Shown: positions 5,724 to 42,192 of the stretch, piece after piece
Position numbering within the stretch: position 1 is the stretch's first letter
How the letters are laid out: the number at the start of each line of letters is the position of its first letter
NCBI GenBank assembly: GCA_938086785.1
Contig: CALKCM010000003.1
Coordinates: forward strand, 155,104 to 219,103
Reading direction: 5' to 3'
Length of the DNA: 64,000 bases
Source: an uncultured Bacteroidia bacterium
GTDB lineage: Bacteria > Bacteroidota > Bacteroidia > NS11-12g > UBA955
The notes under the pieces: model-generated
Database searches by the model: none
The model's input: the letters and a program-made list of their open reading frames with translations, nothing else
Told to the model about the DNA's origin: nothing
Translations under genes and position numbers: made by a program

Positions 5724-8306
5724 TTAATCATTGCTAAAAACCAGGTCTTTATCAAAATCAACTCGAATATTTCCTCCTGGTTTTAGGGCTCCAGAAAGAA
5801 TTTTTTTACTTAATTCATCCAAAAGACGCTTTTGCATGACGCGTTTTAAGGGTCTTGCGCCAAATTGAGGATCGTAACCCAATTGTGCCAACCAGTCTAA
5901 AGCGGAGGCCGTCAATTCGAGCGTAATTTTACTTTCTTCCAATCGTTTTTGTATAAGTTCCAATTGAATTTCGGCAATTTTAGTAATGCTTTCGCGATTC
6001 AAGGGTTCGAACATGCTCACCTCATCAATTCTATTTAAAAATTCAGGACGGATGGTCTTTTTAAGAAGTTGGAATACCTCGTTTTTAGTTTTACTCAATA
6101 CTTGGTCCCTGTTTTTGTCATTCAGTTCATCAAAATTGGATTGAATAAGCTCACTCCCAATATTGCTAGTCATGATTATAATGGTATTTCTAAAGTTGGC
6201 GGTTCGTCCTTTGTTATCGGTTAATCTACCATCGTCTAATACTTGAAGGAGTATATTAAACACATCGGGATGTGCTTTCTCAATTTCGTCCAATAATACC
6301 ACAGAGTAGGGACGGCGCCTTACGGCTTCGGTGAGTTGACCGCCTTCATCATAACCTACATATCCTGGAGGCGCTCCGAGCAATCGACTTACCGTATGCT
6401 TTTCTTGGTACTCGCTCATGTCTATTCGAACCAAGGCTTCTTCGGTGTCGAAAAGGTATTCAGCCAGGGCTTTGGCAACTTCTGTTTTACCTACACCAGT
6501 GGTTCCTAAGAAAATAAAACTACCAATGGGTTTTTTGGGATCCTGTAGGCCTGCTCGGCTTCTTCTAATGGCGTTGGCCACAGCTTCTATAGGTTCTTCT
6601 TGCCCCACTACACGATTATGCAATACCTGTTCAAGGTGAAGTAATTTTTCTCTCTCGCTCTGCATCATTTTAGAAACGGGTATTCCCGTCCATTTGCTAA
6701 TAACCTCGGCAATATCCTGAGTATCTACTTCTTGTTTAACCAAGATATTTTTGCTTTCGCCCATCTTAACACTCAAGGCAAAGAGGTCTTCCTCTGCTTT
6801 TTTTATAATTCCGTAACGGAGCTCGGCCACACGGCCGTAATTTCCGTCTCGTTCGGCCTGTTCTGCTTCTAATTTAAAATTTTCTATGTCTTCTTTCTTT
6901 TGCTGGATAGATCCAAGAACTTGTTTTTCATTTTCCCATTGAGAACGAAAGGTTTTTTGATCTTCTTGCATGTTCGCAATCTTTTTGTTGAGTTCATCCA
7001 GTCGATCCTGATCACTTTCTCTTTTGATGGCCTCACGCTCAATTTCCAATTGCATGATTTTTCGATTTAACTCATCCAATTCTTCTGGAACAGAATTCAT
7101 TTCTAAACGCAGTTTAGATGCTGCCTCGTCCATTAAATCAATGGCTTTATCTGGTAGGAAACGATCACTTATGTATCGCTGACTCATTTCTACGGCACTA
7201 ATAATGGCTTCATCTTTGATGCGCACTTTGTGATGTGTCTCGTACTTGTCTTTTATTCCTCTCAAAATACTAATGGCTTCTTCCGCATCTGGTTCATCCA
7301 CTAAAACGGTTTGAAACCGACGTTCCAAAGCCTTATCTTTCTCAATATACTTCTGATATTCGGCTAAAGTAGTGGCGCCAATGGCCCTTAATTCTCCTCT
7401 TGCTAAAGCCGGTTTAAGGATGTTGGCCGCATCCATTGCACCTTCACTTTTTCCAGCTCCTACTAAGGTATGAATCTCATCAATGAAAAGCACCACCTCA
7501 CCATTGCTACTAACGACTTCTTTTATTACTGATTTTAAACGTTCCTCAAACTCTCCTTTGTATTTAGCACCTGCAATAAGTGCTCCCATATCAAGATTAA
7601 ATACCGTTTTGGATTTTAGATTTTCTGGGATATCGCCGCGAATAATTCGATGGGCTAATCCTTCCGCAATGGCAGTTTTTCCAACGCCTGGCTCACCAAT
7701 TAGAATGGGATTGTTCTTTGTTCTCCTGCTTAATATTTGAAGGATTCTGCGTATTTCGTCATCTCTGCCAATGACAGGGTCCAATTTTCCATCCTTGGCT
7801 GCTTGATTTAAGTTTAAGGCATATTTGGATAAGGCATCAAAGGAGGCTTCGCCAGTATCGGACGTTATTTTATTTCCTTTTCTTAATGCTAAAATAACCT
7901 GTTCTACCTCCTTCACTCTAAACCCTGCATCCTTTAAAATAGTACTTGCCGAACTTTTAGAATCGATAAGGCCCAGTAACAAATGTTCATTGGATATGAA
8001 TTCATCTGAAAATGAACTCATTTTTTTATCTGCCAAGGCCAATACTCTCGAAGCTTCTGTGGCAAAATAAGGAGTGCCTCCTTCCACTTTACCAAAGGTT
8101 TTTATTTCGGCTGCAGCAACCTGTGTTACACGATCCAGATTAGCGGATAGCTTTCCTGCTAAGAGGGTTATAAATTCATTATCGGTTTGTATAAGCGCTT
8201 GCAATAGATGAATAGGTTCTATGCTTTGTTGGGAGGCCGCAAGAACGCTGTTTTGCGCCTGTTGTAAGGTCTCTTGTGCCTTTAAAGTGAATTTTTGTGG
8301 GTTCAT
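5724..8306 (-). CDS. clpB: ATP-dependent chaperone / disaggregase ClpB
   Basis: 860 aa. Two AAA+ modules (GEPGVGKT and GTTGVGKT Walker A), a long middle coiled coil and a Clp N-domain. Confidence 0.97.
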   Translation of the reverse strand: MNPQKFTLKAQETLQQAQNSVLAASQQSIEPIHLLQALIQTDNEFITLLAGKLSANLDRVTQVAAAEIKTFGKVEGGTPYFATEASRVLALADKKMSSFSDEFISNEHLLLGLIDSKSSASTILKDAGFRVKEVEQVILALRKGNKITSDTGEASFDALSKYALNLNQAAKDGKLDPVIGRDDEIRRILQILSRRTKNNPILIGEPGVGKTAIAEGLAHRIIRGDIPENLKSKTVFNLDMGALIAGAKYKGEFEERLKSVIKEVVSSNGEVVLFIDEIHTLVGAGKSEGAMDAANILKPALARGELRAIGATTLAEYQKYIEKDKALERRFQTVLVDEPDAEEAISILRGIKDKYETHHKVRIKDEAIISAVEMSQRYISDRFLPDKAIDLMDEAASKLRLEMNSVPEELDELNRKIMQLEIEREAIKRESDQDRLDELNKKIANMQEDQKTFRSQWENEKQVLGSIQQKKEDIENFKLEAEQAERDGNYGRVAELRYGIIKKAEEDLFALSVKMGESKNILVKQEVDTQDIAEVISKWTGIPVSKMMQSEREKLLHLEQVLHNRVVGQEEPIEAVANAIRRSRAGLQDPKKPIGSFIFLGTTGVGKTEVAKALAEYLFDTEEALVRIDMSEYQEKHTVSRLLGAPPGYVGYDEGGQLTEAVRRRPYSVVLLDEIEKAHPDVFNILLQVLDDGRLTDNKGRTANFRNTIIIMTSNIGSELIQSNFDELNDKNRDQVLSKTKNEVFQLLKKTIRPEFLNRIDEVSMFEPLNRESITKIAEIQLELIQKRLEESKITLELTASALDWLAQLGYDPQFGARPLKRVMQKRLLDELSKKILSGALKPGGNIRVDFDKDLVFSND

Positions 8307-8423
8307 TGATTAGGTATTAAACAACAAATGTGTCTCCAATCTCTTTGGAGGCATCTTTGGAGCCCTTTTACAAGTCAAAGTGGCATTTATCCTAGGTAAA
8401 ACGGCTATTCTTAGGACAAAACG

Positions 8424-8996
8424 TCACATGTCTGTAGGCTCACTAAAGCCTTCTAAATCTTCTTTGTTCGTTCCGTATTCCTCATCAAAGATGCTTTTCT
8501 TTTCAGATTCTTCCGATTTATCTTCTTCTTCTTCTTCTTTCGTATCTAAAGCACTCAGGGTATTTTTCATAAGCATAGCAGCCAAGTCATCCATATCAGC
8601 TGATTCTTCGTCCTCTATAATGGCTGAAGGCCTTTGTTTTGGAGCGAAGCCTTTTGATTTTATGAGCTTTGGATAAGTTTCAGATGCTACTGTTTCGGAA
8701 AAACCTATCATCTCGCAGTACAAAACCCAATCCTGGTCCTCATCAGCAAGGTAAATAAATTTCTGATAGGGTTCGAAAACCGCATTTTTAAGAAGTGTCT
8801 TTTCTAAATTGGGAATCGATTTCTTTTTGCGCCAGGTATCATCACTAAGAATAAATACTCCTGCGAAAGTGCCATCGAATCCTATGGCAGCTTGAATGGC
8901 TTCGTGAAATTCCAAAAAATTGTTGCTGGGTTTTATTTCAAACGTTCGTGAAACATCCGCGTCATCCTCAAAAGTTAACCTAAACTTGTATACCAT
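8424..8996 (-). CDS. Hypothetical protein with a possible MM3350/pRiA4b-ORF3-like N-terminal fold and a polyacidic C-terminal tail
   Basis: VYKFRLTFEDDADVSRTFEIKPSNNFLEFHEAIQAAIGFDG resembles the start of that family. The C-terminal 60 aa are E/D-rich, including EEEEEED. ATG start. Confidence 0.4.
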   Translation of the reverse strand: MVYKFRLTFEDDADVSRTFEIKPSNNFLEFHEAIQAAIGFDGTFAGVFILSDDTWRKKKSIPNLEKTLLKNAVFEPYQKFIYLADEDQDWVLYCEMIGFSETVASETYPKLIKSKGFAPKQRPSAIIEDEESADMDDLAAMLMKNTLSALDTKEEEEEDKSEESEKKSIFDEEYGTNKEDLEGFSEPTDM

Positions 8997-34110: not shown

Positions 34111-36690
34111 ATGAAGAAAACGCTACAAATTTTATTTACCTGCGCTATCCTGGGCGTTATTTATATTGCTCAAGGGAACTCAGGTGGCCCAAGTTGGGGA
34201 TATACTAGCGCTCCTGGGAGCTCTAATTGTAGAGGTTGTCACAGCACTTATGGCTTGCAAAATTCGGGTCCTTTACATTCTAAAATAGATTTACGAATGA
34301 ATACTTTCAAAGGGGGCGGATATTTGCCCGATTCGTCTTACGAGTTCTTGCTAGTTTTTAAGGATACGCTGAACTCTGCAGCTGGTTTCCAAATGACTGT
34401 TTTAGATGAGAATGATGAACCAGCTGGTACGTTTGCGACACTAGATGCTAGAACTCAAGTTGGTTCTAAGTTTGTGAGTGGAAAAACAAGAAGTTTAATC
34501 GGACATACAAGTTCGGGTAATAGCCATCAGGCTTCAGACTCCATTTCATGGCGGATAAAATGGACTGCACCTACTAAAAACCTTGGAAAAATTACGTTTT
34601 ATCTGAATGTTGTTTCCGCCAATATGGCCATGGGCAATAGGGGAGATTATGTTTTTGATAAGACGTTTACGGCAGAACCCTCTAACCTCTTACCAAAAGC
34701 AACAATATCTCTCAAAACATTAAAAGCGTGCAGAAGATCTGCTTTGAGTTTTGAGGCTGCCACCACCGGAACTCCTACCTCATATGACTGGTCTTTTCCT
34801 GGGGCATCTCCAAGCAGTAGTACACAAAGTAAACCTTCAGTAGAATACTTAAATTCGGGTAAGAAAACAGTATATCTAAGCACAACAAATATCTATGGAA
34901 AAGGAGGAGTTGATACCTTTGATTTCACTGTTTTAAATGGTCCATTTAGGGCCTTTATTGAGCAATCTAAATCTGGAACTGCTCGTAAATGTAATATAGA
35001 AGATCTTGTTTTAACCGTATCTAAGCGTTCTTCCGAAAACTATATTTGGTTTCCGGATTCAGTTTTGCAGGATTCATTTGTGGTGACCAAGCCAGGCCTG
35101 TATAGTGTAAAATCTGTCCTTAAAACAACAGGCTGCACAGTAGATGGAAACCGCGTAAATGTGGTAAACCATGATTCCACCTATTTTAGTGTGAATAAAA
35201 TTAGTTCAGATACATTGTGTGCTGGATTAGACTCCATAAGGTTTACTATAAATTCAGGTTCAATAATTACAAATAGTTTTGTTCTTGATGGAGTAGATAC
35301 AGTCAGTTTAAACACAAATTCCATCACCTTGTCTCCGGTGCTTATTTCAGGAGCTAAAACCTTCAAAGTATATGCAAGGGATAGTGTAAACTGTGCAATG
35401 AGTGAACAAGACGTTGCCTTCTACTTTAAAGATCAAGAGCCAGCACCTCGTTTATTGGGTTCTACCAAGCGAAATTTACAGGGGATACAGCTCAATTGGC
35501 GCAGCATGCCCCGTGTATTGGTCTATGAGGTGAGTATTAATGGCAAAAGCTATTTCCCCTCTAGTTCAGGAGGAAAAGATACTTTTTATACCCTTACAGG
35601 ATTAAATCCTAACACCACGTTTACGTATGATGTAAGAGGAGTGACCTTTTCTCAATGCCTCAGTTCTAAGGCTGCGTCAGGTGTCGATTCATCCTTGGCA
35701 TGTAGCCCATTAAACTTTACTATTGCGGGTGATAAGATGTATTGTGAAGGAGATACTGCAGAGATTGAAATTAGCGGGGTTTCAGTACCTAATCACAAGC
35801 TTTATATAAACAACTCTTTAGCATCAAATTCAATGAATTATTCATTTGCTAAATTAGAGTCTCAAAGTGCTACTGTTTTTATTTCCGATTCAACAGGTCT
35901 CTGTTCTTCAGACACACAAAGAATTAATATCATTTATGATGTTATAGATAAGCACCTTATCGATACCACGTACCGACCCATATGTAGTGAAGCTAGTTCA
36001 TCTCGAAATATTCAGTTTTCATTGAATCCGAAAACATCGAAAAAATATAATTGGTATGTAAATGGAACTTTGCGTACAAGCGGTAGTTCAGGTTCACAAT
36101 TAATTGCCATTAAAAATAATGACCAAGTATTTGTTCGAGCAGAAAATGGAGCCTGTCAATCGAATACAGACACGGCCACTATATCTTACTTAAAAGCACT
36201 TAATTGTAAAATAGCTGTGAGACGAGGCGAAGATGGAATTTATTCCATCACATCCGAGGAAAAAGGAGGGGTGCATAGCTGGTTTATTAATGGGATAGAG
36301 CAGTCAAATACATCAGATAGTTTTGATTATGACTTTTCTAGTTTAGCTGGAACAACAGCGGATATAACGCATGTCTTAGATTTGGGTTCAAATTGCAGTT
36401 GTATCGATTCAACTTCAATAGATTTGACCGTGTTGTCCGTAAATAAGCCAAATTCAACTCCATTTAAAGTTTTTCCAAACCCCGCTAATGATTTTATTAT
36501 AGTTTCCTCTAACTCACCTGATACTCATATTCCTTACCAAATTTTATCGAGCACTGGTCGCTTGGTTAAAGAGGGAAATATTAATGGGAGGGCTAGTCGG
36601 ATTAAAGTCAACGGCTTAGCTAAAGGACTTTATCAATTAGTGCTTGGTGAAAATCTACAGGATGTATTTAAAATAGCTGTAATGCATTAG
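34111..36690 (+). CDS. Large secreted T9SS cargo protein (type A C-terminal sorting domain) with N-terminal CXXCH-containing domain and PKD/Ig-like repeats
   Basis: Signal peptide. GGPSWGYTSAPGSSNCRGCHS near the N-terminus. PKD-like YDWSFPGASPSSS...YLSTTNIYG. C-terminal FKVFPNPANDFIIVS...KGLYQLVL is a typical Por/T9SS tail. Confidence 0.8.
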   Translation: MKKTLQILFTCAILGVIYIAQGNSGGPSWGYTSAPGSSNCRGCHSTYGLQNSGPLHSKIDLRMNTFKGGGYLPDSSYEFLLVFKDTLNSAAGFQMTVLDENDEPAGTFATLDARTQVGSKFVSGKTRSLIGHTSSGNSHQASDSISWRIKWTAPTKNLGKITFYLNVVSANMAMGNRGDYVFDKTFTAEPSNLLPKATISLKTLKACRRSALSFEAATTGTPTSYDWSFPGASPSSSTQSKPSVEYLNSGKKTVYLSTTNIYGKGGVDTFDFTVLNGPFRAFIEQSKSGTARKCNIEDLVLTVSKRSSENYIWFPDSVLQDSFVVTKPGLYSVKSVLKTTGCTVDGNRVNVVNHDSTYFSVNKISSDTLCAGLDSIRFTINSGSIITNSFVLDGVDTVSLNTNSITLSPVLISGAKTFKVYARDSVNCAMSEQDVAFYFKDQEPAPRLLGSTKRNLQGIQLNWRSMPRVLVYEVSINGKSYFPSSSGGKDTFYTLTGLNPNTTFTYDVRGVTFSQCLSSKAASGVDSSLACSPLNFTIAGDKMYCEGDTAEIEISGVSVPNHKLYINNSLASNSMNYSFAKLESQSATVFISDSTGLCSSDTQRINIIYDVIDKHLIDTTYRPICSEASSSRNIQFSLNPKTSKKYNWYVNGTLRTSGSSGSQLIAIKNNDQVFVRAENGACQSNTDTATISYLKALNCKIAVRRGEDGIYSITSEEKGGVHSWFINGIEQSNTSDSFDYDFSSLAGTTADITHVLDLGSNCSCIDSTSIDLTVLSVNKPNSTPFKVFPNPANDFIIVSSNSPDTHIPYQILSSTGRLVKEGNINGRASRIKVNGLAKGLYQLVLGENLQDVFKIAVMH

Positions 36691-36809: not shown

Positions 36810-37934
36810 ATGCAAACAACAGAACTTACAAAAGCTACAGAAGTAGTGGATTTTTTACCACTTAATGGAACGGATCATATTGAATTTTACTGCGGAAATG
36901 CAAAGCAATCAGCCTATTATTATCAGCATGCTTGGGGATATGAACTCATTGCCTATGCGGGCCCTGAAACTGGGGTAAGAGAAAAAGCGAGCTATGTTCT
37001 AAAGCAAGGAAAAGTAATCTTGGTTTTGTCAACGGCTATGAATTCGGATAACGATATATCCAAACATGTTCTAGAACATGGAGATGGTGTAAAATATTTA
37101 AGTCTATGGGTGGATGATGCAACAAAGAGTTTTGAAGAAACCGTTAAAAGAGGTGCAGAGGCAGTACTAGAGCCAACCAAATTTGAAGACGAACACGGTT
37201 ATGTAGTTGTTTCTGCCATTAAGACATATGGTGAAACCGTTCATAAATTTGTTGAAAGAAGCAATTATAGCGGGCCATTTTTACCGGGTTTCAAAAAAGT
37301 CGAAAATGCGATGAAAGTTAAACCAGTTGGACTAAAGCATATTGACCACTGTGTAGGCAATGTTGAATTGGGTAAAATGAACGATTGGGTCAAGTTCTAT
37401 GAAGATGTAATGGGATTTAAATTGCTTTTGACCTTTGACGATGAAGATATATCTACGGAATACAGCGCTCTCATGAGTAAAGTAGTTAGCAATGGGAATG
37501 GTTGGGTTAAATTTCCAATAAACGAACCTGCCGAAGGTAAAAAGAAATCTCAGATTGAAGAGTACTTAGACTTTTATGGTACTGCTGGTGTTCAGCATAT
37601 AGCTCTTGAAACGCCTAATATTTTAGAGACAGTCCAAGACTTGCGTAATCGTGGAATTGAATTTCTTCATGTACCTAGTAATTATTACGAAGATGTTTTA
37701 GATAGAGTAGGTGAGATAGAAGAAAATATCGATGATTTAAGAAAGTTGAATATTTTAATAGACAGAGATCAAGACGGTTATTTATTGCAAATTTTCACAA
37801 AACCAGTAGAAGATAGACCTACATTATTTTTTGAAATAATTCAACGTAAAGGAGCTAAAAGCTTTGGTAAAGGAAATTTCAAAGCCCTTTTTGAAAGCAT
37901 CGAACGCGAACAAGAGTTAAGAGGTAATCTTTAA
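36810..37934 (+). CDS. hppD: 4-hydroxyphenylpyruvate dioxygenase
   Basis: Two VOC-fold halves. HIDHCVGNV, GVQHIAL and FFEIIQRKG...FGKGNFKALFESIE match the HPPD iron ligands and C-terminal helix. Confidence 0.93.
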   Translation: MQTTELTKATEVVDFLPLNGTDHIEFYCGNAKQSAYYYQHAWGYELIAYAGPETGVREKASYVLKQGKVILVLSTAMNSDNDISKHVLEHGDGVKYLSLWVDDATKSFEETVKRGAEAVLEPTKFEDEHGYVVVSAIKTYGETVHKFVERSNYSGPFLPGFKKVENAMKVKPVGLKHIDHCVGNVELGKMNDWVKFYEDVMGFKLLLTFDDEDISTEYSALMSKVVSNGNGWVKFPINEPAEGKKKSQIEEYLDFYGTAGVQHIALETPNILETVQDLRNRGIEFLHVPSNYYEDVLDRVGEIEENIDDLRKLNILIDRDQDGYLLQIFTKPVEDRPTLFFEIIQRKGAKSFGKGNFKALFESIEREQELRGNL

Positions 37935-38072
37935 ATAAAACGAAGCGTATAACACCGCTTTAACCTTATGCTTCAAAACTGTTGGTAATTTTGACTTGCT
38001 AAGAAGAAGTAATATTGGCAATTTTGAGTAATGATAGCCTTTGGCAAACTCTTTGTAATTTGTATATCAAAC

Positions 38073-40118
38073 ATGCGTAACTCAGCTTTAATTATTTTTT
38101 TGATTATTCCTTTTATTGCCCTGAGCCAAAGTCTCGAGGAACTCAAGGTAACTGCCGCCAAAGAGATTCTTCGTGTTGATTTATTAGACGGACTGGAGGA
38201 TGAAAGCATACAAATGCAAACTCATTCGCAAACCCTCAGATCTCAGACTGCTTTTTTTAAGCAGTTTCGAAAAATTAAGAATAATCTCATAAGAGCAGAG
38301 AAGTTCGATCAAAATGTCCTTCCGCAATGGCGCGAATGGGTTTTTGCACTTCAACATTTGTCAGAGAATAATACAAGATACCTCGCTTTTTACGAGCAAT
38401 ACTTTCATATGGTTGCCATCGTTACGGAATCAAGAGATGAACAAAAAGAAAAAGAATATCTTAAAAATCATGTGATGTTTGCTTTGGATGGCATACGTTA
38501 TTATATAGACAAGCCATACGACAAAGAAGTACTATTGCATGCTGCTACCATAAAACCATATGAGGTTTTAACTAAATATCTTGCCTATAATAGAGAACCT
38601 TATTTTTTAGAGTTATTAGAAATGGTAGCTATGAATGACCCCAATGCTATTAAACAATATTTTGCATCCAATCATCTCATAAGCAGTACATTAAGCATGA
38701 GTAAAAATCCTGTAGTATTGGATTTATATAAGATATTTAGACGCTATGGATCGGGGAGTTATAGTTATGCAAATATTCATAGCATACACAATAAGCGTCT
38801 AACTCTAGATGAGAGTGATAAGCTAACGAAGAATAAAACAGAGTGGTTCAGAGCCTTATCCCAGCTTAAATCTCAAAAAAATATTTTAGGTAATTATTCA
38901 GTTGATAAAGAATTAGAGAAATATAGCCTCAAAGCTATTATACAAATAAACCTTCTACACGAGCGCCCCGATGCCATTCGATTTGCCTCATGCAATAAGT
39001 ATAATGCACATGAAATGTATACTTTGATGGTTTATGCTCAAGATGAAATATTTACCAGTACATACTTGGGCATGTTTAAGCGACTTTTGGCAAAAAGAAA
39101 AGAAAAAAGCATGTATAAACTCATGGAAAACATGGGATTTAATTACTTTAGGACTTTTGTTCAGATGGCCGCAGGATACAATACTTTGCAAGAGTTGCTG
39201 TCAACTATGACTGTCGAAGAGCAGGATTTATTGATGGAACGTGTGGTAGAAGGCCTGGATAAAACAGGTGGGAATTTACAGCCAGCAGTTGAAGTGGCAG
39301 ATATATATGGAAGTCTCCAATCCGATACACTAAAACAAATCTTATCCTCCAAAGTGAAAAGAGAGCTAAAAAGGTGTGTGAGTGAAGATAATGACTATGG
39401 CATTCGTTTGTACGGCTTGTTATACAAATTGGCCGGCTATGACCCCATTGAAATCACAACCGAATCCTATTCATTCGATGTGCCTGATCTTTTGAAAGTT
39501 TCAGGTAAGGAACTATTCCCTGATGGGACGAATATACAGCAGCATATTTTCTATAACGACGAAGATGGAGAGGCTGCATTTAGTCTATTCCTTGCTCATT
39601 TTGGGGGAGATAAAAACTGGAAGATTTCGAAATTTGAGAAATATACACTTATTGAATCCACCCAAGGAAAATCGATAAAAATGTACTTAAACAGTCCTAA
39701 ATTCGAAAATAGTGCAAATGTGGTTAGTGCCATATTCGAAAAAAATACCAGATATCCAGACGTGGTGGTACACCGAGGACACAGCTATTATTTATATGCA
39801 ACGGTAAAGCGATTAACCAATAACGCTAAAGTGGCTATTTTAGGCTCCTGTGGAGGATATCACAACATGGCCAGTGTTCTGGAAAATGCGTCGGATGCAC
39901 AGATTGTAAGTAGTAAGCAAATTGGAACTTGGACAGTAAATAATGTCTTAATAAAAGATATGGCTGATCAAATGCGAGTTGGAGATGGTGGAATCGACTG
40001 GCAAGAACTATGGGCTGAACTTGACGTTAAACTAGCTAGAAACGATAAATGGAGCGACTACGTGCCCCCGTATAAAAATTTAGGGATGAAGTTCATTAAA
40101 GCTTTTGAAACGCTGTGA
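38073..40118 (+). CDS. Secreted hypothetical protein (681 aa) with C-terminal His/Cys-dyad domain, possibly a caspase/CHAT-like clan CD fold
   Basis: Signal peptide MRNSALIIFLIIPFIALSQS. A helical N-terminal two-thirds is followed by PDVVVHRGHSYY (nt 39771..) and AKVAILGSCGGYHN (Cys at nt 39849..39851). I recognise no family with certainty. Confidence 0.5.
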   Translation: MRNSALIIFLIIPFIALSQSLEELKVTAAKEILRVDLLDGLEDESIQMQTHSQTLRSQTAFFKQFRKIKNNLIRAEKFDQNVLPQWREWVFALQHLSENNTRYLAFYEQYFHMVAIVTESRDEQKEKEYLKNHVMFALDGIRYYIDKPYDKEVLLHAATIKPYEVLTKYLAYNREPYFLELLEMVAMNDPNAIKQYFASNHLISSTLSMSKNPVVLDLYKIFRRYGSGSYSYANIHSIHNKRLTLDESDKLTKNKTEWFRALSQLKSQKNILGNYSVDKELEKYSLKAIIQINLLHERPDAIRFASCNKYNAHEMYTLMVYAQDEIFTSTYLGMFKRLLAKRKEKSMYKLMENMGFNYFRTFVQMAAGYNTLQELLSTMTVEEQDLLMERVVEGLDKTGGNLQPAVEVADIYGSLQSDTLKQILSSKVKRELKRCVSEDNDYGIRLYGLLYKLAGYDPIEITTESYSFDVPDLLKVSGKELFPDGTNIQQHIFYNDEDGEAAFSLFLAHFGGDKNWKISKFEKYTLIESTQGKSIKMYLNSPKFENSANVVSAIFEKNTRYPDVVVHRGHSYYLYATVKRLTNNAKVAILGSCGGYHNMASVLENASDAQIVSSKQIGTWTVNNVLIKDMADQMRVGDGGIDWQELWAELDVKLARNDKWSDYVPPYKNLGMKFIKAFETL

Positions 40119-40633
40119 TGAGGTATTTAAGTGCCCTTGGTTTTATTCTAATTCTGTTTTCATGTAATTCAGATTTAAAGGAGGGTAGATTAAAAGACGA
40201 AACGCTTGTTGACACATTGGGAATTACAGCATATGTCTCATTCAACTCCGAATGCCCCAATTGCTTGAGATCTAAATCTGCACTCATTGATGCAGCAACA
40301 GCATATCCTAATGTTAAATGGAAAGCATTACTTATCGATGATCTTGATAGCAACACTTTGCCCGATGCTATCTTCCAAAAATATCAAGCGGCTGATGCCA
40401 AAAACATAGCTAAAAAGCTTCTTTTTACGGTTACCCCAGAGGTTCTATTGATGAGTCATGGAAGAAAAGTGTATCAGGGTGCCATTACAGACCAGAACAA
40501 AGTACTTGGACAAGGCAAACTACTGCCCCAATTGAATTATCTAATGGATGCATGTACAGCTCTCGAATTTAATCCAGACACCACTTTACAGAGTACTAAA
40601 GCCATGGGTTGTTTTATTGAGTTTAACCTTTAG
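40115..40633 (+). CDS. Thioredoxin-fold (redoxin-like) lipoprotein with CxxC motif
   Basis: Lipobox ILFSC. CPNC at nt 40253..40264. The C-terminal pattern VYQGAITDQ...NYLMDA...GCFIE resembles the YRGRIDD...GC.I redoxin subfamily. ATGA overlap with the upstream gene. Confidence 0.6.
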   Translation: MMRYLSALGFILILFSCNSDLKEGRLKDETLVDTLGITAYVSFNSECPNCLRSKSALIDAATAYPNVKWKALLIDDLDSNTLPDAIFQKYQAADAKNIAKKLLFTVTPEVLLMSHGRKVYQGAITDQNKVLGQGKLLPQLNYLMDACTALEFNPDTTLQSTKAMGCFIEFNL

Positions 40634-41504
40634 GAGTCCAAAGTTTTAAACTTTTAGATTGAACTAAAACCTCTGCTTTAGAACTCGCCAATCCAATATA
40701 GTCACCATCCACATGCATGGGTTGTTCTCCTTCAAAGTTGAGCACAAAGGCCTCGCCCTTTACTCTATAAATATCCGTACTTCTTTTAGACATATTGGTA
40801 GCTATTTTAAAACCAACAATAGGAATCTTTAAAGTGGGGATCTTTTTAAATACAACAGCAGTCAATGTGCCATCATCATCTCTTGTATTCGGGGCTATTT
40901 TAATATTGTTTCCCCATTGGCTCCCATTTGCAAAATCCACCATAAATGTTTCTCCCTTCCAATCGGCATCTTTGTTCTGAAGAACCGTTTCAAATGCTCC
41001 TGTTTTTAAATTCTTCCCTATACTCTTCAAATACCCCCTTAAACCTCTTCCTTTTGCGTTTTTGAATTCCGCACTAATTTTTGCAGAATATCCAACTCCA
41101 GCCATATTTAAAAAGTGGACTCCGTTGATAGTTCCCGTATCACGTAAAGTTTCATGATGTGCATCGATTGTTTGAACTGCACCTTTCCAATTCAAAGGCA
41201 AATGATGATGGCGAGCATATCCATTTCCACTGCCAAAGGGAATGATACCCATTGCCGTGGGTGTGTTAATTAAATTTTCTGAAATTAGATTTAAAGTACC
41301 GTCCCCGCCACACGCATACACAGCTTCAAAATTCTTTTGGACCATATCTCTGGTTGCTTCCTTAATTTCATTGGCGTTATCAAGTCGCAAGCAATTATAA
41401 GAAGTTTCTTTCTTTATGAAACGTTCAAATTCATCTTTCTTTTTCTTTCGCCTTGAGCTGCCAGAACCAGAATGTATAATGAAACCTATTTTGTTTTTTG
41501 TCAC
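40623..41504 (-). CDS. Diacylglycerol/lipid kinase family protein (YegS/BmrU-like)
   Basis: ACGGDGTLN motif and overall DAGK catalytic-domain layout. Confidence 0.85.
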   Translation of the reverse strand: MTKNKIGFIIHSGSGSSRRKKKKDEFERFIKKETSYNCLRLDNANEIKEATRDMVQKNFEAVYACGGDGTLNLISENLINTPTAMGIIPFGSGNGYARHHHLPLNWKGAVQTIDAHHETLRDTGTINGVHFLNMAGVGYSAKISAEFKNAKGRGLRGYLKSIGKNLKTGAFETVLQNKDADWKGETFMVDFANGSQWGNNIKIAPNTRDDDGTLTAVVFKKIPTLKIPIVGFKIATNMSKRSTDIYRVKGEAFVLNFEGEQPMHVDGDYIGLASSKAEVLVQSKSLKLWTPKG

Positions 41505-41509
41505 AGTAT

Positions 41510-42187
41510 CTAATCTTTGTTAAAAGCGTATTTGATGATGTTAGCACCCATTTTTAGGGCCTCAATTCTTATGTTCTCTGGGTCATTATACGTTTCAGCA
41601 TCCTCCCATCCATTGCCCAAGTCGCTCTCATAATCATAGAAAAGAACCAATCGTTCCTCTTCAAATATGCCCAAACCCTTGGGTGCTTTGCCCTCGTGCT
41701 TATGAATCTTTGGAAGACCATTATCAAAAGTGTAGGCTCCTTGGTATACTGAATGAGAAAAAGGAACTTCTCTCAAAGTTTTATCTGGAAATAAGCGCTT
41801 GATTTCCCTCCGAATATTTTTATCCATTCCATAATTATCACAAATGTGCAAAAATCCTCCTGCGCTGAGATAGGTCCGAATATTTTGAATGTCTTTCGGG
41901 TTAAAAATCACATTTCCATGACCCGTCATAAAAACGTAGGGATAAAGGAATATATCTTCGCTACTAGCCTCCACTACGGATTCTTCTGTTTTTATACTCG
42001 TTCCAATATTCTTATTGCAGAATCTAGCTAAATTCGGAAGCGCAGTTCTACTGCTATACCAATCTCCACCACCATTATATTTTAAACGAGCTATAGGAAT
42101 ACTATTAGAGGTTTTGTTGCGTTGAGACATAACTATACCTGCAATCATCAATATACCAATACCAGCAAGTAGAACTCTTATTCGCAT
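41510..42187 (-). CDS. DUF4159 domain-containing protein (N-terminal membrane anchor)
   Basis: ARLKYNGGGDWYSSRTALPNLARF and the FMTGHG block match DUF4159. First ATG is at 42187, 5 nt after a -7 box. Confidence 0.7.
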   Translation of the reverse strand: MRIRVLLAGIGILMIAGIVMSQRNKTSNSIPIARLKYNGGGDWYSSRTALPNLARFCNKNIGTSIKTEESVVEASSEDIFLYPYVFMTGHGNVIFNPKDIQNIRTYLSAGGFLHICDNYGMDKNIRREIKRLFPDKTLREVPFSHSVYQGAYTFDNGLPKIHKHEGKAPKGLGIFEEERLVLFYDYESDLGNGWEDAETYNDPENIRIEALKMGANIIKYAFNKD

Positions 42188-42192
42188 CACAG

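Follow-up and report, generated by a model that had tools for sequence, protein, structure and literature searches.

A strongly conserved, unnamed family of exported Bacteroidota proteins with a Cys-His-Asp site in a predicted alpha/beta domain

In a stretch of 64,000 nucleotides from an uncultured Bacteroidia bacterium (GenBank assembly GCA_938086785.1, contig CALKCM010000003.1, positions 155,104 to 219,103; hereafter designated the window), we analysed a forward-strand gene for a 681-residue protein (the big protein) consisting of a signal peptide, a long helical region, and a C-terminal alpha/beta domain, together with the gene directly downstream, which encodes a thioredoxin-fold lipoprotein (the redoxin). 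The big protein belongs to a real and strongly conserved family of exported proteins, which is unnamed and stands outside the curated resources and solved structures searched. In its C-terminal domain, one Cys, two His, and two Asp residues are almost invariant and are predicted to lie at one edge of the sheet. We tentatively propose, at a little short of even confidence, that the family consists of exported thiol-dependent hydrolases or transferases, in which C593 would be the nucleophile, H567 the base, D496/D498 the third member, and the helical region a recognition arm. The features concerned, in the numbering of the 681-aa form, are as follows.

38073..40118, + strand: gene of the 681-aa exported two-domain protein, stop codon included (list of open reading frames (ORFs) and translation)
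38073..38126, + strand: signal peptide, residues 1-18 (MRNSALIIFLIIPFIALS), with predicted cleavage by signal peptidase I (SPI) before Q19 (sequence)
38133..39437, + strand: all-helical, solenoid-like N-terminal region, residues ~21-455 (~435 aa) (DSSP assignment of the AlphaFold2 (AF2) model)
39495..40115, + strand: C-terminal alpha/beta domain, residues ~475-681 (~200 aa), the conserved family core (AF2 model and profile search)
39558..39566, + strand: D496-E-D498, acidic pair right after the first domain strand (486-493) (conservation and AF2 model)
39771..39785, + strand: H567-R-G-H570-S571, at the end of strand 564-568 (conservation and AF2 model)
39843..39857, + strand: G591-S-C593-G-G595, turn from strand 587-590 to helix 595-605 (conservation and AF2 model)
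39915..39920, + strand: K615-Q616, right after strand 610-614 (conservation and AF2 model)

Relatives of the big protein are numerous. A word-indexed search returned 155 of them, all unnamed and without Pfam domains, and scoring 1.84 billion cluster representatives (50% identity) with a profile built from the last 220 residues yielded 898 proteins at E≤1e-3, 551 of them at E≤1e-30; the relatives are mostly 660-745 aa long and reach 1814 aa. By a pattern scan of one genome per GTDB species, relatives were located in 380 species, and practically the whole family belongs to metagenome-assembled Bacteroidota. The 80 best GTDB loci come nearly all from metagenome-assembled genomes of Bacteroidota from lakes, reservoirs, and sea water, and no cultured source appears among the loci and proteins listed. 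The window protein alone was recognized by neither Pfam nor NCBIfam, and when 65 diverse members were compared with Pfam at E≤5, no recurrent family emerged, at most four members matching any one family. A literature search for the motifs HRGHS, GSCGG, and LGSCGGY gave nothing relevant. In public collections, the exact 681-aa sequence is entered as a 'hypothetical protein', which is also the sole name carried by proteins identical or nearly identical to it.

An earlier note, made from this DNA alone, had described a signal peptide and a long helical N-terminal region of no named family, and both descriptions are borne out. The 681-aa form starts with MRNSALIIFLIIPFIALS followed directly by QS, in which a basic residue precedes a hydrophobic core and a small residue comes before Gln, the last pair being the 'Q-rule' of SPI cleavage in Bacteroidota (PMC5837995). 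Family-wide, a hydrophobic N-terminal stretch is found in 199 of 242 near-full-length representatives, with the small residue and Gln coming next in 124 of those 199, and the predicted local distance difference test (pLDDT) score of the AF2 model is below 50 over residues 1-17. As to the helical region, a comparison of the whole-protein profile with PDB sequences revealed no solved structure and just designed helical repeats at E>0.01. Among the 65 diverse members, N293, R303, T328, and S329 of this region are invariant and H296 nearly so; the invariance of these four polar residues is far beyond chance.

The invariant columns of the family, in alignments spanning 22-78% identity, cluster in the C-terminal domain. 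Conservation was counted over 266 aligned domain copies from cluster representatives, mostly less than 50% identical to one another. The His and Cys residues singled out in the earlier note proved to be conserved as expected, C593 being kept in 265/265 copies (as is G594), H567 in 264/266, and H570 in 263/266. Equally high counts were obtained for R568, G569, and S571 (each 264/266), for G591, S592, and N623 (264 copies each), for D496 and D498 (each 263/266), and for W643, W647, Y663, and P666 (each 266/266), and position 615 is occupied by Lys in 260 copies, Arg in 5, and Gln in 1. C593 is the sole conserved cysteine, the other two (C307 and C435) lying outside the conserved columns, and therefore it is not a structural disulfide partner. 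Two related representatives (P0196 and P0212) have Leu in place of H570 and a His three residues downstream (HRGLS[TS]H), and they also carry Arg for K615 and Asp for L590 (IINDGSCGG); the alignment hints that the second His can change its position.

AF2, run with the family alignment, gave a pLDDT of 90.2 and a predicted template modelling (pTM) score of 0.85 for the full-length protein, and 91.2 and 0.89, respectively, for the domain alone. The full-length pTM indicates that the two domains are held in a fixed arrangement in the predicted structure. Residues 486-681 are modelled as an alpha/beta fold in the order beta(486-493), alpha, a three-strand meander (516-540, with two antiparallel strands at 516-520 and 524-529 and with N540 coming after the meander), alpha, beta(564-568), alpha(571-579), beta(587-590), alpha(595-605), and beta(610-614), followed by helices alone. 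The observation that a His and a Cys each follow a hydrophobic strand holds in this model, where H567/H570 end strand 564-568 and C593 comes after strand 587-590. Consecutive strands joined by one short helix, as are those of H567 and C593, are as a rule parallel neighbours, the active sites of alpha/beta enzymes lie where the strands have their C-terminal ends, and a small-x-Cys-x-small sequence at a strand-helix junction is the geometry of the nucleophile elbow in alpha/beta-hydrolases and class I amidotransferases. As modelled, the invariant residues sit at the C-terminal strand ends, which in a doubly wound alpha/beta fold form the canonical edge for an active site; the three-dimensional adjacency of Cys and His and the strand order are what we infer from the model.

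We also infer, as follows, the chemistry and substrate as well as a link with the redoxin. The 681-aa product would be exported to the periplasm by Sec and SPI. C593, on the Gly-rich G-S-C-G-G turn that leads from a buried strand to the N-terminus of a helix, would act as the nucleophile, and H567, at the tip of the neighbouring strand, as the general base, assisted by H570, with D496/D498 at the tip of the first strand orienting or polarising the His. R568, S571, K615, and N623, lining the same C-terminal edge of the sheet, may bind an anionic group of the substrate (carboxylate or phosphate), and the rigidly packed N-terminal helical region with N293, R303, T328, and S329 may serve in substrate recognition or gating. 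In the sub-clade of the window, the co-transcribed, membrane-anchored redoxin lipoprotein may keep the single free thiol of C593 reduced.

Several observations weigh against this proposal. No homology to a characterised thiol enzyme was detected in the Pfam, NCBIfam, and PDB-sequence searches, and the Foldseek matches are generic. Exchange of Cys for Ser, which often accompanies nucleophiles, occurs nowhere in the family at C593. The redoxin is found in none of the 58 GTDB loci (of the 80 best) whose big protein is at most 40% identical to that of the window. Furthermore, in catalytic zinc sites two of the ligands are separated by a short spacer and the third by a long one, and H-x-x-H followed after 22 residues by Cys fits the spacing of such a catalytic metal site. 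The main rival explanation, on the whole an unlikely one, is that H567, H570, C593, and D496 or D498 form a mononuclear site for Zn, or for Cu/Fe, so that the protein would be a metallohydrolase or a metal/redox-handling protein. The candidate ligands (His, Cys, and Asp) are of the usual kinds and invariant here, Cys/Ser exchange is not seen in the family, and a sister clade offers a metal/redox context in an operon containing thioredoxin-like and haem-c plus Cu2_monoox_C genes (described below). Nevertheless, the replacement of H570 by Leu with a His at +3 in P0196 and P0212 is easier to accommodate for an auxiliary base than for a ligand, a Cys framed by Gly/Ser residues where a helix begins is typical of nucleophile elbows, Foldseek yielded no metalloenzyme fold, and the haem/Cu neighbour is absent from the clade of the window as well as from the 58 distant loci.

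The His-Cys arrangement had been read in the earlier note, tentatively, as that of a clan CD (caspase/CHAT-like) protease. In clan CD, the sheet has six strands in the order 2-1-3-4-5-6, with strand 6 antiparallel, and five helices; strands 3 and 4 end in the His/Cys dyad, the catalytic His has a Gly beside it in all families, and the minimal core comprises the first four strands and helices 1-3 (PMC4357240, McLuskey and Mottram). Dyad placement and minimal core are the parts of the call that stand, since H567 ends strand 564-568, C593 comes three residues past strand 587-590 with helix 571-579 between, and the predicted order beta1-alpha1-(hairpin)-beta-alpha2-beta(His)-alpha3-beta(Cys) is compatible with that core. 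As in the clan CD families C14, C25, C13, C50, and CHAT, His precedes Cys at the ends of hydrophobic strands separated by one helix, the domain is a three-layer alpha/beta sandwich, and an acidic residue follows the first strand. Moreover, separase and TPR-CHAT carry the catalytic domain C-terminal to a long helical-repeat region, a layout resembling that of the big protein.

The remaining evidence goes against the assignment. The His-Gly pair is missing, H567 being followed by R568 and H570 by S571 (each 264/266) with G569 between the two His residues, and there is no sixth antiparallel strand in the AF2 model, where helices alone come after strand 610-614 and extra antiparallel strands lie between alpha1 and the beta2 equivalent. 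Unlike in clan CD, the Cys of this domain stands in a G-x-C-x-G turn starting a helix, not at a strand end, and the domain has a beta-hairpin insertion together with extra invariant Arg, Ser, Lys, and Asn and two invariant Trp residues. The spacing between His and Cys is 23-26 residues, shorter than the 33 of the gingipain alignment (H186 to C219). Clan CD models were not among the 25 most recurrent Pfam families listed for the 65 members at E≤5, and the profile of the C-terminal domain matched no PDB sequence at E≤10. Comparison of structures was no more favourable to a caspase-hemoglobinase fold, for which the earlier note had proposed to test a structure model: none of the best 50 PDB matches given by Foldseek is a caspase, metacaspase, gingipain, legumain, separase, CPD, or CHAT structure. 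Profile-profile alignment by hhalign, using C25 and C14 alignments built only of retrieved database proteins, gave a probability of 0.14-0.28% for the domain against gingipain C25 and 0.4% against caspase-3 orthologues, the alignments being shallow; the positive control of C25 against C14 likewise gave 0.4%, and the comparison is hence powerless at the clan level. Its best local segment against the caspase-3 orthologues, at that probability of 0.4%, places C593 on Cys163, a nominal point in favour of kinship that lacks significance, and leaves the His unaligned. Collectively, a true but extremely divergent clan CD member, namely a periplasmic endopeptidase or transpeptidase with a His-Cys dyad, is quite unlikely; clan CD membership is not supported, and the best reading is that the site is analogous but not demonstrably homologous to that of clan CD.

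What Foldseek did return is of a general kind. The full-length model had no PDB match at E≤1e-3, and the domain model, compared with 350,542 PDB chains, had six. The best 50 PDB matches of the domain are small GTPases, peptidyl-tRNA hydrolase, and terminase ATPase, with query-normalised template modelling (TM) scores of 0.26-0.37 and root-mean-square deviations (rmsd) mostly of 6-14 Å, GTPases and peptidyl-tRNA hydrolase scoring best; a viral structure library gave similarly generic matches. GTPase/P-loop proteins and peptidyl-tRNA hydrolase share with the domain the three-layer sandwich and the element order beta-alpha-beta-hairpin-(alpha-beta)n. The domain differs from GTPases in reading NDEDGEAAF after the first strand, without a Walker A motif, and the GTPase-like similarity is, as far as the model goes, a generic topological match. 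A small GTPase or P-loop protein was rejected because neither Walker A (GxxxxGK[ST]) nor NKxD was seen, the protein is exported, and TM does not exceed 0.37; peptidyl-tRNA hydrolase (2lgj, TM 0.37) was likewise set aside as a generic match. The best structural match of the domain across the libraries searched is an unnamed BFVD entry of 264 aa (A0A1P8DJ94; Foldseek probability 1.00, TM 0.48/0.41, rmsd 4.8 Å over 202 columns), which surpasses every PDB match and bears no annotation.

Other identities were considered and rejected. Arylmalonate decarboxylase/Asp-Glu racemase was matched far under the cut-offs (Pfam E 0.027 over residues 585-630, NCBIfam 0.11), in only 2 of the 65 members and confined to the strand-Cys-Gly-Gly-helix motif. 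For CE4 polysaccharide deacetylase, LmbE/PIG-L, beta-carbonic anhydrase, isochorismatase-like, receiver/HAD-like, and PTP (C-X5-R) proteins, the order or spacing of the motifs does not fit, and they do not occur in the Foldseek or Pfam results. Thiol enzymes with a nucleophile elbow, such as dienelactone hydrolase and class I glutamine amidotransferases, resemble the domain in having small-x-Cys-x-small at a tight strand-to-helix turn, and sub-threshold GATase_3 matches of Pfam fall on the Cys motif in 2 of the 65 members; in these enzymes, however, the Cys stands ahead of the His and the acid in the sequence, the reverse of the order here, and there is no significant similarity.

As no enzymatic family is assignable, the big protein might instead be a non-catalytic periplasmic binding or scaffold protein, a pseudo-enzyme whose polar patch binds a ligand or partner. 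A large helical-repeat region is typical of binding modules, and the most conserved gene neighbourhood, that of mutS and spoU, is functionally uninformative. We nonetheless consider this highly improbable, because near-absolute invariance of a Cys, two His, two Asp, an Arg, a Ser, a Lys, and an Asn at strand ends in hundreds of lineages is a signature of catalysis and not of binding, and because tandem paralogues retain all these residues.

Such paralogues occur on the same strand in nine loci (L069, L070, L072, and L075-L080), several of them labelled Chitinophagales or Chitinophaga, the first being a long form (864-1196 aa) and the second ~700 aa in length. Long-form representatives, for instance P0144 (1020 aa), keep the invariant set of D, D, H, H, C, and K. 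In other long forms (P0189, of 1814 aa, P0263, P0205, and P0126), the C-terminal domain is accompanied by extra C-terminal regions, two of which bear the motif GGID(F/L), and P0205 is composed, in its N-terminal part, of repeated 'E.AAE.(D/N)PW.A...ADKYIDQPYAQRVI' units. Pfam, applied to eight long variants (839-1814 aa), gave a single sub-threshold match (RhoGAP-FF1 in P0126, 23.3 against a cut-off of 30.1 bits) and none in the other seven.

The redoxin encoded directly downstream of the big gene has the following features.

40118..40633, + strand: gene of the 171-aa membrane-anchored lipoprotein of thioredoxin/peroxiredoxin fold, with GTG 40115 as an alternative start (172 aa) (profile)
40163..40165, + strand: lipobox cysteine C16, in the context ILFS-C (sequence)
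40253..40264, + strand: C46-P-N-C49, of which just C46 and P47 are invariant (alignment of 15 homologues)
40436..40438, + strand: invariant P107, presumably the cis-proline, where the thioredoxin fold has its conserved proline
40607..40621, + strand: G-C165-F-I-E, containing the second invariant cysteine, with G164, C165, I167, and E168 invariant

Pfam matched no model with the redoxin of the window alone; among the 15 homologues, all with a lipobox or an N-terminal membrane anchor or helix, it recognized Thioredoxin_8 in 13 and Redoxin in 10, and AhpC-TSA also matched. A profile of these homologues matched the PDB entries 2cvb (E 2.9e-8), 2ywi, and 3u5r, with E values of 3e-8 to 3e-7, and further tryparedoxins and DsbE- and ResA-like chains. 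To our knowledge, no function is known for 2cvb, 2ywi, and 3u5r. Over ~135 residues, the redoxin shares with these three (2cvb being TTHA0593) the thioredoxin fold, a Cys-Pro starting helix 1, the conserved proline (P107 in the context (V)TPEV is aligned with the tPeV motif of 2cvb and 2ywi), and a C-terminal G-C-x-I; it differs in being a lipoprotein and, relative to 2cvb, in having its CxxC shifted by three residues (CPNC against CNHC-P). The second cysteine of CxxC is lost (CPLS) in 4 of the 15 homologues (L017, L018, L019, and L054). Because C49 is not conserved and C165 is invariant, the alignment identifies C46 and C165, not the CxxC, as the probable conserved redox pair, as in an atypical 2-Cys peroxiredoxin-like protein. 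The C-terminal Cys of 2ywi is regarded as a resolving cysteine (PMC3091736).

The pairing of the two genes was examined in the 80 best GTDB loci and in the four closest loci (L081-L084) by hidden Markov model searches of six-frame ORFs. In 20 of the 80 GTDB loci, the redoxin gene comes right after the big gene, and each of these 20 encodes a big protein at least 44% identical to that of the window; the redoxin gene is also present in the four closest loci. At this level of identity there are 22 loci, the other two being L005, where the redoxin is one gene further, and L007, where the contig ends. Synteny across the family, which the earlier note had proposed to check, was not found, the pair being restricted to this sub-clade. 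In L016 (7504-8067) and L022 (~7958-8617), an antisense ORF of greater length covers the redoxin gene; Rfam matched no RNA family in the L016 interval.

The gene that usually comes after the redoxin gene in the sister clade, often overlapping it, encodes a ~460-aa protein with a CxxCH haem motif and a Cu2_monoox_C match (E 1e-5), as well as weak Haem_bd and Cytochrome_CBB3 matches (L001:7313-8698; equivalents in L004-L006, L008-L011, L013-L019, L022, L045, and L054). A 368-aa ORF with no Pfam or NCBIfam match comes after this haem/Cu gene in many sister-clade loci, and the four genes possibly form a redox operon, judging from their order. Neither the haem/Cu gene nor the 368-aa ORF is present in the window. 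In L005, it is the haem/Cu gene, not the big gene, that the redoxin accompanies; in the clade of the window, the redoxin remains beside the big gene though the haem/Cu gene is absent. On this gene order, the pairing of the big gene and the redoxin is real but clade-specific, with the haem/Cu protein as a candidate alternative client. Of the dedicated thiol-disulfide oxidoreductase envisaged earlier, the thioredoxin fold is retained, while its dedication to the big protein is put in doubt by the unconserved CxxC, the missing redoxin in the distant loci, and this alternative client.

Exported Cys/His hydrolases are already a known kind of enzyme; it is the family itself that is new to the resources searched. 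A wider reading, possible and on balance somewhat unlikely, is that the family represents a new clan of periplasmic cysteine hydrolases or transpeptidases that reached the clan CD solution independently and is widespread in uncultured aquatic Bacteroidota, one clade being wired to the peroxiredoxin-like lipoprotein and the haem/Cu monooxygenase-like protein as a redox-controlled envelope module. If so, the helical repeats would form an arm that recognises the substrate, like that of separase and CHAT. Should the Cys-His site prove catalytic, an enzyme family of ~900 sequence clusters stands outside curated resources, its substrate would point to an unannotated envelope process (protein, peptidoglycan, or lipid processing), and a doubly wound alpha/beta scaffold would once more have gained a His/Cys active site by convergence; should the site bind a metal instead, a new family of periplasmic metalloproteins would be at hand. 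The place of the family is the cell envelope of abundant freshwater and marine Bacteroidota, and under either reading it merits a domain definition and a structure.

Some details of the genes themselves may be added. An in-frame ATG at 38031 gives an alternative 695-aa form (ORF 38031..40118, + strand), in the numbering of which H567/H570 are H581/H584 and C593 is C607. The 14 codons before Met15 (MIAFGKLFVICISN, 38031-38072) are kept as protein in relatives of 70-78% identity (MMAFGKLF.., MNTFGKQF..). Because these upstream codons are conserved and public gene calls are split among 695, 681, and 667 aa, the real start codon is uncertain from the sequence. A Bacteroidota-like -7 element, cAATTTTG, is located at ~38019-38026, just 5' of the first ATG; a scan for sigma-70 promoters and terminators gave chance-level matches only, the sigma-70 model not being applicable to Bacteroidota promoters. 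Between the big gene and the redoxin gene, the junction reads CTGTGATGAGG, so that the ATGA overlap described previously is not present: the genes share either GTGA, with the GTG start at 40115, or the single base in TGATG, with the ATG start at 40118, the form used in public gene calls for the downstream gene. The positions of the motifs were all confirmed (HRGH, 39771-39782; C593, 39849-39851; CPNC, 40253-40264; GCFIE, 40607-40621), and the decapeptide PDVVVHRGHS has its complete span at 39756-39785.

Family-wide, the commonest neighbours are mutS on the opposite strand and a SpoU methylase directly upstream (50 of the 80 loci), a neighbourhood that gives no functional clue. The gene of this SpoU-family RNA methylase (e.g. 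L001:4207-4740, L017, and L030) shares the strand of the big gene, and in many loci a divergent mutS precedes it; in L001, its stop codon touches or overlaps the big gene's start. In the clade of the window, the upstream gene is instead that of 4-hydroxyphenylpyruvate dioxygenase (36810-37934). Further upstream, 34111-36690 (+ strand) encodes a protein of 859 aa that begins with a choice-of-anchor V domain (NCBIfam NF041895, E 2e-20; N-terminal, containing a CxxCH-like CRGCH) and further has PKD/fn3-like repeats and a type A sorting domain of the type IX secretion system; this gene is kept two genes upstream in the closest relatives L081-L083. Downstream and convergent with the redoxin gene, 40623-42190 (- strand) holds a YegS/DAGK-type lipid kinase, accompanied by a DUF4159 protein; the 3' end of the lipid kinase gene overlaps that of the redoxin gene by 11 nt, and the position of the lipid kinase and the DUF4159 protein is kept in the closest relatives L081 and L084.

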